A stretch of 64,000 nucleotides of DNA from Eledone cirrhosa (GCA_964016885.1 OZ024745.1:94922001-94986000); one strand, 5' to 3'; numbered from the stretch's first letter, positions 3,518 through 62,605 are shown. A program made the numbers and translations. Notes: generated by a model from the sequence alone, not told the origin.

Positions 3518-3580
3518 ATTACATTTTATTATACATATTTCGGATGTACAACAGTACGTCCTCATCAGACAAAATATAAT
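3518..3580 (-). ncRNA. type I hammerhead ribozyme
   Basis: attatattttgt CTGATGA ggacgtac-tgtt-gtacatcc GAAA tatgta TA ataaaatgtaat: 12-bp stem I, stem II with one mismatch, near-palindromic stem III. Confidence 0.85.
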
Positions 3581-3734
3581 GATACATGACATACCCTGAG
3601 ATGTTAAATGGTTAAGATTTAATCAAGGTACTACCTTGATTAAATCTTAACCAAAATTATCCCCTGTGATTGTTTCATATGTTTATTTATATGTTAATCA
3701 ATTTCTAGTTGTTAAATATATATATATATATATA

Positions 3735-4158
3735 ACATCACAACTTACAATTAAGGACAAAATGAAAACACACACACACATAGAACAAACAACTAACCGG
3801 CAACATGTAAATAAACAAATAAATAAACAAATATAAACACACACAGACACCCGGATGTGGCGCATGCGCAGACTGACCACACAACACACACACAGAAACA
3901 AAATGGCGTAGGACAGAACAAAGGAGAGGCACAAAAACAAAGAAAAGAATCCCCAGTCACTGATGAGGTCACATAATGTGTAACGAAAGAACTTTGACAA
4001 TATATAAACAACTATCTGGTTGTGGAACCAACCAACCAACCAGAAATTTATAAATTTATAAATTCCTAAATTTATAAATTTATTATAATAAATTGAAGTG
4101 AAAGCACATGGTGCGAGTGTTTCTTATTGGCAACATGACCCTCCCAAAGTATAACAAT
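3735..4158 (+). mobile_element. solo PLE pseudo-LTR between (TA)n tracts
   Basis: Homologous to 9071-9405 (inverted) and 9921-10090, which flank a PLE RT fragment; carries an HHR. Confidence 0.7.
3956..3998 (+). ncRNA. minimal type I hammerhead ribozyme
   Basis: gtca CTGATGA ggtcacataatgtgtaac GAAA gaac TT tgac. Confidence 0.65.
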
Positions 4159-4452
4159 ATATATATATATATATATATATATATGTATATATATGGTATT
4201 ATGAATATGCAAATCAGTTCCTTATTTTTCCTTTTACCAGGCATTGAGATTTAAACACGTTTTCAATGGCAGCCATGTCAAAAGCAGATACAAACTTTAT
4301 TTTGATTTATATTTGTACTTCCTGTCTAATGACACCGCATTGATTGATTATTCAATAACGGCCTTTTGGTGCCTTGCAGTTGTGCATAACGGGATGATAT
4401 AATGGAATAAAATGATGTTGAATATGTGATACCATTTCTCTTCTGTCTCTTA

Positions 4453-4785
4453 ATATATATATATATATATATATATATATATATATATATATATATATAT
4501 ATATATATATATATATATAGAGAGAGAGAGAGAGAGAGAGAGAGAGAGAGAGAGAGAGGGGTGCGTGTGTGTATGTGTGAGAGACTGAGAGAGAGAGCGC
4601 GCGCGCGCGCGCGTGTGTGTGTGTGTGTGTGTGTGTGTGTGTGTGCGCGTGTGAAAAAGAGAGAGAGAGAGAGAGAGAGAGACAGAGAGAGAGAGAGAGC
4701 GCGTGTGTGTGTGTGTGTGTGTGCGTGTGTGTGTGTGTGTGTGTGTGAGAAAGAGAGAGGGAGAGATAGAGAGAGCGAGAGAGAG
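4453..4785. repeat. compound microsatellite (TA)n-(GA)n-(GC)n-(GT)n
   Basis: Directly visible dinucleotide runs. Confidence 0.95.
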
Positions 4786-5130
4786 GCAGTGAATTGGCAG
4801 GCATTATTTTGCGATATTCATTCCAGTTCTGTTCACTCTGAGTTCCTATATTTACATATGCATACTCGAGAAGCTAAAATATAACGCTGATAACACTGTT
4901 TATTTCTCTTGTCATTAGAAATGCTATGAGTGGATTGCTGCTTTTGAAATCTGTACAAACGTCGTTGTTATTTACCAACTGGGATATGAAGCAAACAATG
5001 AAGTAATTTTCTACTCCAAGCTTGAAAAATATTTCTAGAATTGAAAGGAACGCCATGCTGTTAATAACTCTATTTTGAAATTAGCTTAACAATCGAAACG
5101 CACCCAATGACAGAAAGATAGTAACTAAAT

Positions 5131-58503: not shown

Positions 58504-59045
58504 CCTGTCTGGCCCTCTGGAGAATAGAGGAAATGTGTTTCCTTGAAAACTCGTATGACTCTAAAACCCGGTCCGCCTGTGTGGTTACATACAGACTAGC
58601 TGACACTCACTGTAAAGTGTCTAGTGAAAAGCTGAGTACATGTACATATGTATACATGTGTGTATTTATACGCATACTAATACTTCCGTATACATATGTA
58701 GATATACACTTTAACTTAATTGTTTAAGCGTCAGTCATACAAAAGTGAGTTAGAAGCGAAACGAAATTTAATTTCGTTTCGTTATTTGTTTATATATATA
58801 TATATATATATATATATATATATATGTAGGAGGTGAGTTTTATTGTAGTACAATAAAGCAATCACCCATCTCTCCCTCACCACCTTCACTCTCATCTCCT
58901 CCCCTTTTTTTCATCCTTTCCACACTCCTCTCTAAATAAAATATTTTTTTCCCAATATCACACATCAATCTAAAACTACTTCTCATATGTTGATTTAAAA
59001 CTGCACTATCCACAAGTGTTTTTTAGCCTTCATATCATGTTCTCC

Positions 59046-59118
59046 TGTTTTATCTGATGAAAACACAAATATTATTGCATGATGATGTTTGTTCTTGAAA
59101 TGCGCATAATAAAATACA
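59046..59118 (+). ncRNA. type I hammerhead ribozyme in 5' pLTR
   Basis: tgttttat CTGATGA aaacacaaatatt...gatgtttgttctt GAAA tgcgca TA ataaaataca. Confidence 0.8.
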
Positions 59119-59322
59119 TGGAACTCCTTTAACCATCTTTTGATCTTATATATTATGTATACTCCAGTCCTACAAACTGTAGAGTGCTTCTTATCCGATA
59201 TCTGCAATGCTTTATTGTACTACAATAAAACTCACCTCCTACATTAACTTGCTCCTTAACGGTTGAGCGCTTACTCTCATATTGGATACCTTTTGATGGT
59301 CTTTTACTTCTTCTTCTACAAC

Positions 59323-61719
59323 ATGGATTATTACAACATAACCAATTCAACTAAAGACATTCCTATACCTGGTAAATCTGAATTCACCAAACTTCTAATT
59401 GAAAAAACTGACTCCTTCGTAAGAAGACTTAGATGGATAGCCTATTTCTATGACCAGCTCCTAAAAGGGAACTTCTATACCAAAGAACATAACTTCCTCG
59501 ATCATCTATTTAATTCTAGAAGAAATCCTCCTTCCAACAAAAATCTAGTGCAATTCGAGGAAGAGTTAACTAAAATAATAAAAAATCTTAAATTCAAGAG
59601 ATACCCTTACAAAGGACAAGAGCACCTTGTAAATCTCAAGAACACAATTTCTAACATAAATTCCTCAAAAAATGTTTTAGTCCACTCTGACAAAACCAAT
59701 AACTTATATGGTATTTCCAACGATAATTATAACAACCTTATCCTAAAGGAACTTAGGAAAAAATATCGTAAAACCAACCATGAAAATTTAGAATACATAA
59801 ACCTTGAAGCCTCTGAGATTATGTCAAAACTTGGCATTGAAAAAAAGACCGAACCATTCCTCCCAAGAACTCCGAGGATAAATCTCAAGGATCACAAAAA
59901 CAATTTTCGCACTGAACTACCTGTTAGATTAATCGCCCCCTCTAAATCTGATCTGGGGGTTGTTAGTAAAGCCATCTTGGATAGAATTATCCCACAGGTT
60001 CGTTCTAATTGCTCTTCTTTGAACCTAAATTTATGGTTTGGTACTTCTGAAGTGATTGGCTTGTTCAACAAATTGGATAATAAAAACAAACTAAAATTTA
60101 TTCAATTTGATATTGCCAGCTACTATTCCTCCATTTCGCCTTCACTTCTCAATAATGCTCTATCTTTCGCACTTAAATATTCTGACATCACCACAGATGA
60201 ACTTCACATCATCCTCACCGCACGTAAAACCATCCTAGAGTTCAACAACGAATATTGGACCAGAGCCGATACCTCTAACAACTTCGACATCACAATGGGA
60301 GCATCCGATTCATCCCAATTGACTGATTTAATTGGTATCTTTATTTTGAACTCTTTGAGTCGGAAAATTCCTCAACTTCGCGGTGGAATTTATCGTGACG
60401 ATGGACTCTTTACTATCTTAAATTGCAATATAGTTAACCTTAATATTATTAAGAACAATATACGTAATCTCTTTAACCAATATAACCTAAAAATTGAATT
60501 TGATAACAATATCAAACTAGCTAATTTCTTGGATGTATCTCTTAATCTTGACACTGGCCTATATTACCCTTACCATAAAAACAATGAGAACCTAAATTAT
60601 GTTAACTTTAAATCTAACCATCCTACTAATATCAAGAATGCTATAGTTAGTAATATTGGAAAAAGAATATTTAACATATCTTCTAATAAAAACATCTTTG
60701 ATGCTAACGCCAATTACTATAATAACGCACTTTCTAAAGCCGGCTATCCTGATAAAATCAAATATAGTAAAGAAACAAATTCTAAAAGAACTTACAGTAG
60801 AATAATTAATCATGATCATTCCAATAACTTTAATAAAAGACCTAGATACAAAAACATAATCTGGTATAATGCTCCTTTCTCCATCTCTATTAATAACAAT
60901 ATTCCTAAATTATTCTTTAGTGCCTTAAATAAATGCTTCCCTCCCTCACATATCTATAGTAAAATATTTAACAAACACACCATAAAATTTTCTTATTCTA
61001 CATCCTCCAATATTTCCAACATTATCTCTAAACACAACAATACTAAATACTAAATCTCTTCCTTCCAACACTGAATTTCATAATAACAGTAATAGTACTC
61101 CCGACGTCATTGTAAACCCTAGGCTAATTTCTGTAAACCCAAATACAACGTCAAACACAACTTCGCTAAATGTTCATAATCCAACTCTAAATCAAGAAAC
61201 TATTATTCCTATCGCAAACAACTTCTCCAATCCAATTCCTTCTATAGATAACACTAGGTCACTCATTAATAATCTCTCTAATTGCAATTGCAATTGCCCT
61301 ATAAAAAATAAATGTCCTCTCAACAACCATTGTCTTGATAAAAACTTAATTTATGAATGTAAAGTTATAACTAACACCAATTCCTTCACCTATTTTGGCT
61401 CCACTTCCACGTTTTTTAAAGCTCGTCTCTATAATAATCATTCATCTTTTAAATACAAACTTAAAAGAACCAACACGGCTCTCTCAGAACTCATATGGTC
61501 CTTGAAAGACAAAAACATTAAATATACCATCTTTTGGAAGAAAGTTTCTTCTGCGTCTCTATCTAAAATCTGCAATCTCTATCTAAAATCTGCAATCTCT
61601 GCCTAAATGAAAAAATTACCATTATCTCTAATCTAGATTCTATAATAAATAGACGAATAGATTTGTTTTCTATCTGCTTGCATAAATTCCATAAGACATT
61701 TCACAAAGTATACAACTAA
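59323..61719 (+). pseudogene. PLE RT plus GIY-YIG polyprotein (~789 aa if repaired), frame broken by 7-bp and 20-bp tandem duplications
   Basis: SDKT; LKDHK..F....PVRLI.PSKS; FDIASYYSSI; ITMG; GIYRDDGL; NFLDV; WYNAPFS; then CNCPIKNKCPL, LIY...YFG, CNLC..E, ICLH in shifted frames. Confidence 0.92.
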
Positions 61720-62532
61720 TATTCAATTCTTTATCAATTTAGAATCTTTTCTCAAAGGCACATATACATACACCTCTTTTAAAATATACCCACCTTCCTA
61801 CCTTATTTCAAAGTGTATTATACACTCTATAATACTTGTTTACTCATTACCCTTACTCTATTTTCACCTTGTAAAATCCTTCGTAACATATACATTTGTT
61901 TTGACGCCAGATTATTCATCCTTAATTCATTATTTTTTTCTCCCCATCATCTAACTCATTCTTAATACATATTAACTCTTTCTTCGCACATATTATCAAT
62001 TCCTTCAATATACAAACCTTAACTTCACATTATTTTTCTCAAATCCTTCAATAAACAAACCTTAATAATTTTTTTCTCTTCGTTAATTTTCAAATTTCCA
62101 TAATACTTGTAAACATACACACTTTTTTGACGTTAGAATATTCATCCGCCATTCATTATTCTATTCTCTCTATCATCAAACTTTTTAATCTCAATACATA
62201 TTAACTCCCTCTCCTTCTTCGTACATATTTTTCCCTTCGTTAATTTTCAAATTCTTTTAATTTATACATTATCTTCCAACGGTTTTCAACCGCTCTATGT
62301 AAAACAATATATCTTTCTCAGTTATAAAAACTATCTCTCTCTCTCTATCACCCAACTCTCCCTCTCCACCTTCACTCTCATCTCCTCCCCTTTTTTTCAT
62401 CCTTTCCACCCCCCCTCTCTAAATAAAATATTTTTTTCCCAATATCACACATCAATCTAAAACTACTTCTCATATGTTGATTTAAAACTGCACTATCCAC
62501 AAGTGTTTTTTAGCCTTCATATCATGTCCTCC

Positions 62533-62605
62533 TGTTTTATCTGATGAAAACACAAATATTATTGCATGATGATGTTTGTTTTTGAAATGCGCATAATAAA
62601 ATACA
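62533..62605 (+). ncRNA. type I hammerhead ribozyme in 3' pLTR
   Basis: Same motif as 59046-59118. Confidence 0.8.

Follow-up and report, generated by a model that had tools for sequence, protein, structure and literature searches.

Minimal hammerhead ribozymes (HHRs) have been described in the pseudo-long terminal repeats (pseudo-LTRs) of Penelope-like retroelements (PLEs), with a palindromic helix III, a dimer model of action, a U3-A8 variant of the core, and opposite-strand pairs 100-700 bp apart (PMC4209133). PLEs themselves are reported to have pseudo-LTRs, an inverted 5'-truncated copy at their 5' end, a tail of 30-40 bp, an HHR within the pseudo-LTR, and a bias towards microsatellites (PMC8557442). 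Action as dimers through a short palindromic helix III is the published model for these ribozymes (PMC4209133; PMC6765202), and the trimming of tandem transcripts or the feeding of circular templates have been proposed as roles of their cleavage (PMC4209133). Here, we analyse a 64-kb stretch of the genome of the mollusc Eledone cirrhosa (contig C5, positions 94922001-94986000, of an assembly of 2.996 Gb in 1796 contigs), hereafter called the window, for its hammerhead motifs and the elements that carry them.

Judged by their sequence, about 25 hammerhead motifs predicted in the window are intact. With a probability of roughly 85%, we interpret the motifs as minimal type-I HHRs located near the 3' ends of PLEs and of derivatives without open reading frames (ORFs), both of which sit at (TA)n tracts; the ribozymes are predicted to self-cleave the element transcripts, likely as dimers via a self-complementary stem III. 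The system is known in kind, as it consists of the minimal HHRs of PLEs and their non-autonomous derivatives, which are dense in this mollusc genome and land in (TA)n.

Several features are common to the motifs of the window and the minimal HHRs of PLEs (Cervera & de la Pena 2014, PMC4209133; Lunse, Weinberg & Breaker via PMC6765202), namely the type-I architecture with a stem I of 4-7 bp, an often long stem II that sometimes has an unpaired base at its 5' end, a 1-bp stem III closed by a palindrome of 4-8 nt, and the U3:A8 variant. They also share the location in both flanking repeats of elements that encode a reverse transcriptase (RT) and a GIY-YIG endonuclease (EN), the many solo copies, and the opposite-strand pairs 100-700 bp apart. 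Unlike the minimal HHRs described there, the motifs reach a far higher density (about 25 intact copies in 64 kb) and a stem II of up to ~85 nt, two families have a hairpin of 3-4 bp as stem III, one has a stem III loop that is not self-complementary, and several have a C at core position 4. Our literature search found no report of PLE hammerheads in cephalopod-like mollusc hosts.

The two largest carriers, designated PLE 1 and PLE 2, resemble canonical EN+ PLEs (Penelope/Poseidon, Neptune, and Nematis; Craig et al. 2021, PMC8557442) in the order of an RT and, at the C-terminus, a GIY-YIG domain, an upstream Cys motif, direct or inverted pseudo-LTRs, a 5'-truncated copy in inverted orientation at the 5' end, a tail of 30-40 bp, an HHR in the pseudo-LTR, and the microsatellite bias. 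They differ from these in that the RT of PLE 2 is too divergent for Pfam RVT_1 and that both ORFs are interrupted, by two stops in PLE 1 and by a frameshift in PLE 2. ORF-less tandem units of 469 and 593 nt with one type-I HHR each are in turn similar to animal non-LTR retrozymes (Cervera & de la Pena 2020, PMC7229834), with which they share a low GC content, dispersed arrays, and co-existence with PLEs. In contrast to these retrozymes, the unit lies slightly above the range of 150-450 bp and has a minimal dimer-type instead of a loop-loop HHR.

Hammerhead motifs and their core classes

Two descriptors were used to search for the motif, and both require helices that correspond to the type-I topology, with three helices of which stem I is open and stems II and III are closed. 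The first, which asks for the core, a stem II of at least 3 bp, GAAA, U-H, and a stem I with five of six pairs, found eight sites in the window compared to a mean of 0.10 in 60 dinucleotide shuffles, and 11 compared to 0.32 when slack was allowed at the stem II base. The second, strict descriptor adds a stem III that is self-complementary or a hairpin of at least 3 bp. It found ten C3:G8 sites (0.03 in 100 shuffles) and three U3:A8 sites (0.16), giving 13 sites compared to an expectation of 0.19, and none in the reversed sequence. A strong excess over dinucleotide shuffles, the yardstick named when these motifs were originally predicted, is thus found. A loose U3:A8 descriptor, in which stem I needs four of six pairs, yielded 26 matches for 3.3 expected and is too noisy to name single sites.

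The window was also combined with a random genome sample of 60 stretches of 10 kb from contigs C1-C5 (600 kb), for which dinucleotide-shuffle and reversed-sequence controls were likewise made, the single N-containing stretch being left out of the shuffles. In the resulting 664-kb set, the canonical pair at core positions 3 and 8 had 32 matches and U3:A8 had seven, whereas the other 14 combinations had 0-5 each and 23 in total. The 32 matches with GAAA compare with 0-4 for each of nine mutants, single-position mutants at core positions 4, 5, 6, and 9 had 9, 3, 1, and 0 matches, respectively, and the letters at position 17 were A (21), C (7), U (5), and G (2). One control descriptor, with the core CGGAAGA, matched one repeated sequence at two sample loci (L057:4666 and L071:8946), probably a dispersed repeat of unrelated origin whose fit to the helices is accidental.

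A short degenerate motif could be matched by chance in AT-rich, repeat-rich DNA, and both the silence of the Rfam models at 27 of 29 site loci and the noise picked up by the loose U3:A8 descriptor (stem I 4/6) would agree with such an origin. However, the strict descriptors give 8-13 sites for 0.1-0.3 in shuffled and none in reversed sequence, the mutant-core controls are low, and the motifs hold a fixed place within repeated elements, which makes this explanation extremely improbable. Chance is refuted for the 25 intact sites; for weak sites, such as 5560 and 34189 (sites are named here by their originally listed positions), it could still apply.

The original prediction had listed 31 HHR or HHR-derived sites, and the letters described are present at every one of them; the palindromes it named (ACTAGT, ACCGGT, ATGATCAT, ATGCGCAT, ACAATTGT, ACGTACGT, and ACTACGTAGT) were likewise all recovered as stated. 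By hand parse, 15 of the 31 sites have a canonical CUGANGA, GAAA, and H17 core with three helices. Stem III is self-complementary with G.U pairs at 3518 (3523-3575(-), AUAUGUAU; also by descriptor), a decayed palindrome at 14638 (14639-14702(+), AUAUGUUU), and AUGAUCAU at 16344 (16344-16403(+); also by descriptor). Site 35782 (35782-35890(+); both descriptors) has a CUGACGA core, a long stem II, and ACAAUUGU as stem III. Hairpins form stem III at 50406 (50406-50472(-), 3 bp, with mismatches at the stem II base; also by descriptor) and in the ORF-less element family of 6998 (6998-7049(-), 4 bp) and 30688 (30688-30739(-); descriptor and blastn). A further family consists of 3956 (3953-3999(+)), whose stem III is AGAACU, and 9216 (9216-9261(-), CUGAAGA; descriptor), which blastn finds 94% identical over 250 nt. 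Their intact cores differ at N7, and the two motifs face each other 5.2 kb apart. Four canonical sites belong to the 469-bp arrays discussed below (56882-56926 and 57351-57395 on the minus strand, 57990-58034 and 58459-58503 on the plus strand; found by descriptor and by sub-threshold matches to Rfam HH9), and two to the 5' (59046; 59047-59118(+)) and 3' (62533; 62534-62605(+), also by the second descriptor) pseudo-LTRs of PLE 2. The clearest motif, 57990-58034, consists of a stem I of 7 bp, CUGAUGA, a stem II of 5 bp that ends in a loop of 4 nt, GAA, A-CUAG-U, and C17. Outside the original list, the second descriptor added one intact canonical site, 55968 (55961-56051(+)), with the core CUGAGGA and AUAAUUAU as stem III, which brings the number of sites to 32.

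A UUGANAA core, in which U3:A8 is the covariant of the C3:G8 pair, was parsed by hand at nine of the 31 sites. Three of them form one family, namely 11093 (11093-11183(-), stem III ACUACGUAGU), its tandem copy 593 nt away at 11686 (11686-11776(-); also by blastn), and a head-to-head copy at 12108 (12108-12198(+); inverted-repeat search), all of which were also recognised by descriptor. A 7-bp stem I is found at 6108 (6108-6151(-), stem III AUCGGU) and at 46806 (46806-46934(-), with a long stem II and a hairpin stem III), both supported by descriptor. The HHR-like motif at 32869 (32869-33004(-)) has long stems and resembles 46806, and that at 5560 (5555-5664(-)) combines a long stem II with a weak stem I of four A-U pairs. 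The remaining two lie in the 3' arm (41207-41256(-)) and the inverted 5' arm (46376-46425(+)) of PLE 1.

At the other seven listed sites, the hand parse revealed substitutions in the invariant core. Decayed HHRs are present at 7981 (7981-8024(-), G12 to U), at its blastn relative 47858 (47858-47901(-), A6 to G and A15.1 to U), and at 18056 (18056-18106(+), A9 to U and G12 to U), which blastn assigns to the 6998 family, and 35173 (35173-35283(-), G8 to A and G12 to A) is a decayed copy of the 35782 HHR, again by blastn. Site 34189 (34189-34257(-), stem III ACGUACGU) is an HHR remnant with G8 to C and a poor stem I, and 33813 (33813-33908(+)) is a decayed HHR-like motif with U4 to C and A9 to G. 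The HHR-like motif at 10421 (10421-10529(-), stem III ACAAUUGU) has U4 to C as its only core change, giving CCGAAGA. Five such CCGANGA motifs with otherwise good helices occur in the 664-kb set for 0.4 in shuffles, the others being at sample loci L041:6668, L060:6183, L072:3693, and L090:1223. At least 10421 and the L060 motif have stem I in common and differ in stem II, which suggests, as far as the sequences tell, a lineage founded by a C4 copy rather than random decay.

Carrier elements, ORF-less derivatives, and (TA)n tracts

PLE 1 is bounded by an inverted pair of 710-nt arms that are 93% complementary, the 3' pseudo-LTR arm at 41100-41809(-) and the inverted 5' arm at 45821-46530(+), which were found by inverted-repeat search and each contain a U3:A8 HHR ~140 nt from the outer end. 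The ORF between them (42485-44533(-); Pfam and translation) encodes an RT (43010-44533(-), Pfam RVT_1, E 2e-7, YLDD motif), followed by two stops and a GIY-YIG endonuclease (42485-43003(-), Pfam, E 3e-7).

PLE 2, on the plus strand, has direct pseudo-LTRs of ~300 nt (58858-59158 and 62345-62650) that are ~98% alike by repeat comparison and contain the same HHR. Its ORF (59260-61606) is RT-like, with YRDD, a frameshift near 61000, and a GIY-YIG-like C-terminus, the motifs being recognised by eye in the translation. Neither this ORF nor its homologues (24 at E<=1e-5) matched a Pfam family even at E<=1; its language-model neighbours carry HTH_animal, DUF8422, and RVT_1, the clusters of its homologues carry HTH_animal and RVT_1, and it has a short similarity to the RT of PLE 1 (E 2e-5). 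The sole named homologue of any protein of the window comes from the octopod Argonauta hians (37% identity). Sequence comparison identified a 36-nt tail of PLE 2 at 58826-58861, which is the reverse complement of 59207-59242 (36/40 letters), is absent at the right end, and was seen for this one element. Of the features of EN+ PLEs, an ORF for RT and GIY-YIG, direct or inverted pseudo-LTRs with the HHR inside, and a tail are represented in the window.

Four further RT-EN remnants were detected by tblastn. They comprise endonuclease-region ORF remnants within an inverted repeat (12977-13908), a C-terminal part with a weak GIY-YIG (17275-17907(-)), a 5'-truncated RT-EN ORF head-to-head with the 30688 HHR arm (30810-32046(+)), and another endonuclease-region ORF remnant (34597-34917(-)). 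Head-to-head divergent HHR pairs occur in four families of the window and at four places of the random sample.

The 469-bp unit is the most prominent of the ORF-less derivatives. It forms two head-to-head arrays, one of 1.9 units on the minus strand (56664-57566) and one of 2.6 units on the plus strand (57567-58795), as found by Tandem Repeats Finder (TRF), Rfam, and descriptor; each unit has a GC content of 0.37, one type-I HHR, and no ORF of at least 120 aa. The genome contains at least 401 matches to it, and identity is 96-100% in every one of the 150 listed matches except a single one. Among these listed matches, the unit occurs in short arrays of 2 to ~14 units on many contigs, often head-to-head, with variable 5' ends and, in many arrays, an end at unit position 291, which is also joined to (TA)n in contigs of a public run (X3). 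In the window, both arrays run out into (TA)n, but their end points within the unit (56664 and 58792) differ by 69 nt, the second being position 291. The 5' end of the plus-strand array (57566/57567) lies 8 nt downstream of the predicted HHR cleavage site, which is probably a coincidence, as other genomic arrays begin at many other unit positions.

These arrays, together with the 593-nt unit of 11093, could follow a retrozyme cycle, in which the ORF-less tandem units are transcribed as multimers and cut to unit length by the HHR, after which a cellular ligase closes the unit RNA into a circle and the RT of a PLE makes new arrays from it by rolling-circle copying. This cycle is a special case of the PLE-derivative reading and not a contradiction to it, and we consider it possible, at somewhat less than even odds. 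Apart from the small, AT-rich, ORF-less unit with its single type-I HHR, which has the features given for animal non-LTR retrozymes (PMC7229834), the dispersal of highly similar arrays of 2 to ~14 units (again among the matches listed) fits the cycle, and PLE pseudo-LTRs are given as the source of such retrozymes in a 2026 preprint (10.64898/2026.07.22.740005). Yet ordinary PLE insertion also yields tandem arrays, no PLE protein fragment was found in any of six genomic array loci examined, and the HHR of the unit is of the minimal type with a 1-bp stem III and not of the loop-loop type of most invertebrate retrozymes.

A second ORF-less element is the short one of the 6998 family (6998, 18056, and 30688), with 3224 first-look genomic candidates, 40 of which were scored. 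The ribozyme core is kept in 27 of 30 aligned genomic copies, and in these 30 the whole element is 93-100% conserved with no contrast between HHR and flank, and the conserved block runs straight into (TA)n. In the window, the arm of this family (6886-7200, 17900-18115, and 30560-30886) stands head-to-head with RT-EN remnants (17275-17907 and 30810-32245) that are cut at different points. It may be a separate ORF-less element that was joined during insertion.

The association with (TA)n is not restricted to these elements. Counting tracts of (TA)>=6 and taking the ribozyme sense as direction, 20 of the window's 32 HHRs are followed downstream by a tract no more than 160 nt away, compared to three that are preceded by one upstream (random rate 17%, binomial P 9e-9). 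The random sample gave the same orientation, with 15 of 26 HHRs followed and five preceded by a tract at a random rate of 9%. Viewed from the tracts, an HHR lies within 300 nt of 28 of the window's 53 TA loci and points into them; pure TA tracts make up 4.5% of the window and 2.6% of the random sample. Many islands, for example 3518, 6108, 14638, and PLE 2, have (TA)n on both sides, so that insertion into an existing tract fits better than a tail made by the element. PLEs have an insertion bias to (TA)n (PMC8557442), and a PLE protein has been found to cleave AT-rich DNA (PMC11167929). The (TA)n would thus be the preferred target of the endonuclease, in which case an insertion would split the tract and leave a unique island with an HHR that points at it. 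The original prediction had noticed that islands between (TA)n tracts carry the motifs; this pattern is explained by HHRs lying upstream of a (TA)n tract in PLE-type elements that insert into (TA)n, while the carrier PLEs and the target link had gone unnamed.

Stem III and the role of cleavage

As a monomer, stem III is only 1 bp long in most families, in which one A-U pair closes a self-complementary loop of 4-8 nt (in some only through G.U pairs), with ACUAGU, AUGCGCAU, and ACAAUUGU among the distinct palindromes. From the sequences and the literature, the RNAs would be expected to cleave at H17. Where stem III has 1 bp, its extension would depend on pairing with a second copy, so that two copies would cut each other, and cleavage would trim multimeric or read-through transcripts of the elements; for the 469-nt unit, it would give an RNA of unit length with the possibility of circularisation. 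The two families with an ordinary hairpin as stem III (6998 and 50406) could, judging from their sequence, act alone. Dimer folds of three long-stem-II families include the palindrome among their intermolecular pairs and gain 10-13 kcal/mol, which is weak support at most, and minimum-free-energy dimer folds of the short motifs are a trivial domain swap.

The palindromes had been proposed to form a dimerisation code, in which they diversified under selection so that only tandem partners of the same family form an active double hammerhead. With 22 stem III sequences among 53 motifs, their diversity agrees with this idea, as does the palindrome pairing in the three long-stem-II folds, and in nearest-neighbour calculations the own homoduplex is the best pairing for eight of 12 sequences. 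However, different palindromes cannot pair and base pairing alone suffices for such a preference, which would therefore appear with or without selection. In addition, five of the 22 sequences recur in unrelated stem-II clusters (ACAATTGT in four, ATATATAT in three, and ACTAGT, ACCGGT, and ATATGTAT in two each), and six clusters hold more than one stem III, mostly one transition apart (ACCGGU/AUCGGU, AUAUAUAU/AUAUGUAU). AUCGGU even pairs better with ACCGGU than with itself, two families have a hairpin instead of a palindrome, and most copies lack a partner on the same strand, as only three families have one in the window (the 469-bp array, 11093/11686, and 59046/62533). We found no sign of selection for family-specific partners and regard the code as improbable.

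Several results weigh against self-cleaving PLE ribozymes as the explanation of the motifs. At the gathering score, Rfam has no hammerhead match in the window, and thus no motif qualifies for a curated covariance model. In E-value mode, the only hammerhead matches are four to Hammerhead_HH9 (RF02275), all in the 469-bp repeat, whose motif aligns to the whole model (positions 1-77) and reaches at best 31.8 bits for a threshold of 52, while the other sites fail; in single scans of 29 short loci, which surround 29 of the 31 listed sites, 27 had no match to a hammerhead model at E<=10 and the two matching loci were this repeat. We attribute this silence to the models, which derive from motifs that have a real stem III, and do not take it as counter-evidence, since Cervera & de la Pena had to define their own descriptor. 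For the short motifs, the hammerhead does not stand out among the minimum-free-energy folds, and AGAACU, the stem III of the 3956/9216 family, is not self-complementary and fits neither the dimer nor the hairpin mode. In the 6998 family, the adjoining RT-EN remnants have no HHR at their own 3' ends (no second HHR was found at 32046-32245 and 17000-17275), and a PLE protein fragment lies within ~1.5 kb of only seven of 30 genomic copies, in no fixed arrangement. From the literature, HHR mutants of a lizard PLE insert normally in vitro and no RNA sequencing reads end at the cut site (PMC11167929), and PLE clades without HHRs proliferate well (PMC8557442). The lizard mutants and the successful HHR-less clades make a life-cycle role of cleavage less certain; cleavage by the lizard PLE ribozyme is reported to be protein-assisted (PMC11167929).

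The ribozymes could also be passenger relics, that is, descendants of real HHRs that are not needed by the elements and hitch-hike in the pseudo-LTR, with nearly all copies inert. The core substitutions in seven of the 31 listed sites and the solo state of most sites would be expected in this case, the published in vitro activity of minimal PLE HHRs is low (PMC4209133), the normal insertion of the lizard mutants (PMC11167929) points in the same direction, and Craig et al. raise the possibility that HHRs simply parasitise PLEs (PMC8557442). Under our main interpretation, too, most HHRs of the window are probably relics, because most copies are solo, 5'-truncated, or decayed. Against a passive origin as a whole, the canonical core is at least 3.5-fold above each single-position mutant class in the 664-kb set and G17 is depleted (2/35). 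Unrelated families also keep the core even though stems I and II differ throughout, a pattern that, on sequence grounds, points to the motif being under selection in active lineages. We therefore consider the passenger explanation rather unlikely, and retain predicted self-cleaving ribozymes of PLEs and their derivatives as the best account of the motifs.

Density, diversity, and genomic setting

The extreme density and diversity that had been claimed for the window are borne out, with 32 sites that blastn groups into 20 families, compared to the ~17 families originally estimated. In the random sample, the strict descriptor found 26 sites at 18 places (1.95 in shuffled and two in reversed sequence), which corresponds to ~43 strict motifs per Mb (Poisson 95% 28-63) or ~0.85-1.9 x 10^5 in 3.0 Gb. 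The genome is very rich in hammerheads next to published counts, which were obtained with other descriptors, of ~9,000 minimal HHRs in Xenopus tropicalis and ~3,300 in Schistosoma mansoni (PMC4209133), and of up to 120,000 HHRs in the 32-Gb axolotl genome (PMC7229834). The window itself is a 4-5-fold hot spot, as its 13 strict sites compare with 2.8 expected at the genome rate and its eight separate places with 1.9 (P ~8e-4). Thus, the ribozyme richness anticipated in the original prediction holds in part: the genome is rich in motifs, whereas the premise of a typical window does not apply.

A bolder extension of these results would place the genome, with dozens of families and ~10^5 strict motifs, among those known to be richest in hammerheads. 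Its (TA)n landscape would be tied to the elements, with over half of the window's TA loci being landing sites of HHR elements. Tracts and PLE-type elements would promote each other's amplification, and the stem III palindromes would drift apart, which would keep families in the same genome from poisoning one another's dimers. Taken as a whole, this scenario is speculative, and we think it unlikely to hold in full.

The window is otherwise AT-rich eukaryotic DNA (GC 0.30-0.39) crowded with dinucleotide microsatellites, with 65 TRF rows that are mostly (TA)n and (CA)n. Palindromes of these repeats (e.g. 29785-29866 and 16752-16833) reach up to 74 bits with the microRNA families mir-3149, mir-1277, and mir-297 in the E-value mode of Rfam; all of these matches are below the gathering score and were taken as low-complexity artefacts. 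A dispersed, locally tandem repeat of ~150-200 bp is found at 50-240, 18950-19140, 20513-20918, 39082-39676, 53460-53650, 54751-54880, and 62785-63274, and corresponds to families D15, D16, and D18 of the repeat search and to TRF periods of 197 and 154. A stretch resembling a tRNA B-box, noted by eye, gives it the appearance of a short interspersed nuclear element (SINE). ARAGORN found no tRNA genes in the window, including this SINE-like repeat. A perfect 16-bp tandem repeat with 16.1 copies at 100% identity is located at 52465-52722.

The analysis of this window illustrates that an unaided reading of sequence can pick out real ribozyme motifs that are missed by the curated models of Rfam. 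What it adds to the known minimal HHRs of PLEs is an estimated rate, for a genome of 3 Gb, of ~43 strict motifs per Mb, a diversity of 20 families in 64 kb, and a replicated, strand-specific link between HHRs and downstream (TA)n, which agrees with the preference of the PLE endonuclease for AT-rich targets. Finally, the very young 469-nt unit, with its mostly 96-100% identical copies among the matches listed, would make a good substrate for studying the function of PLE hammerheads in vivo.

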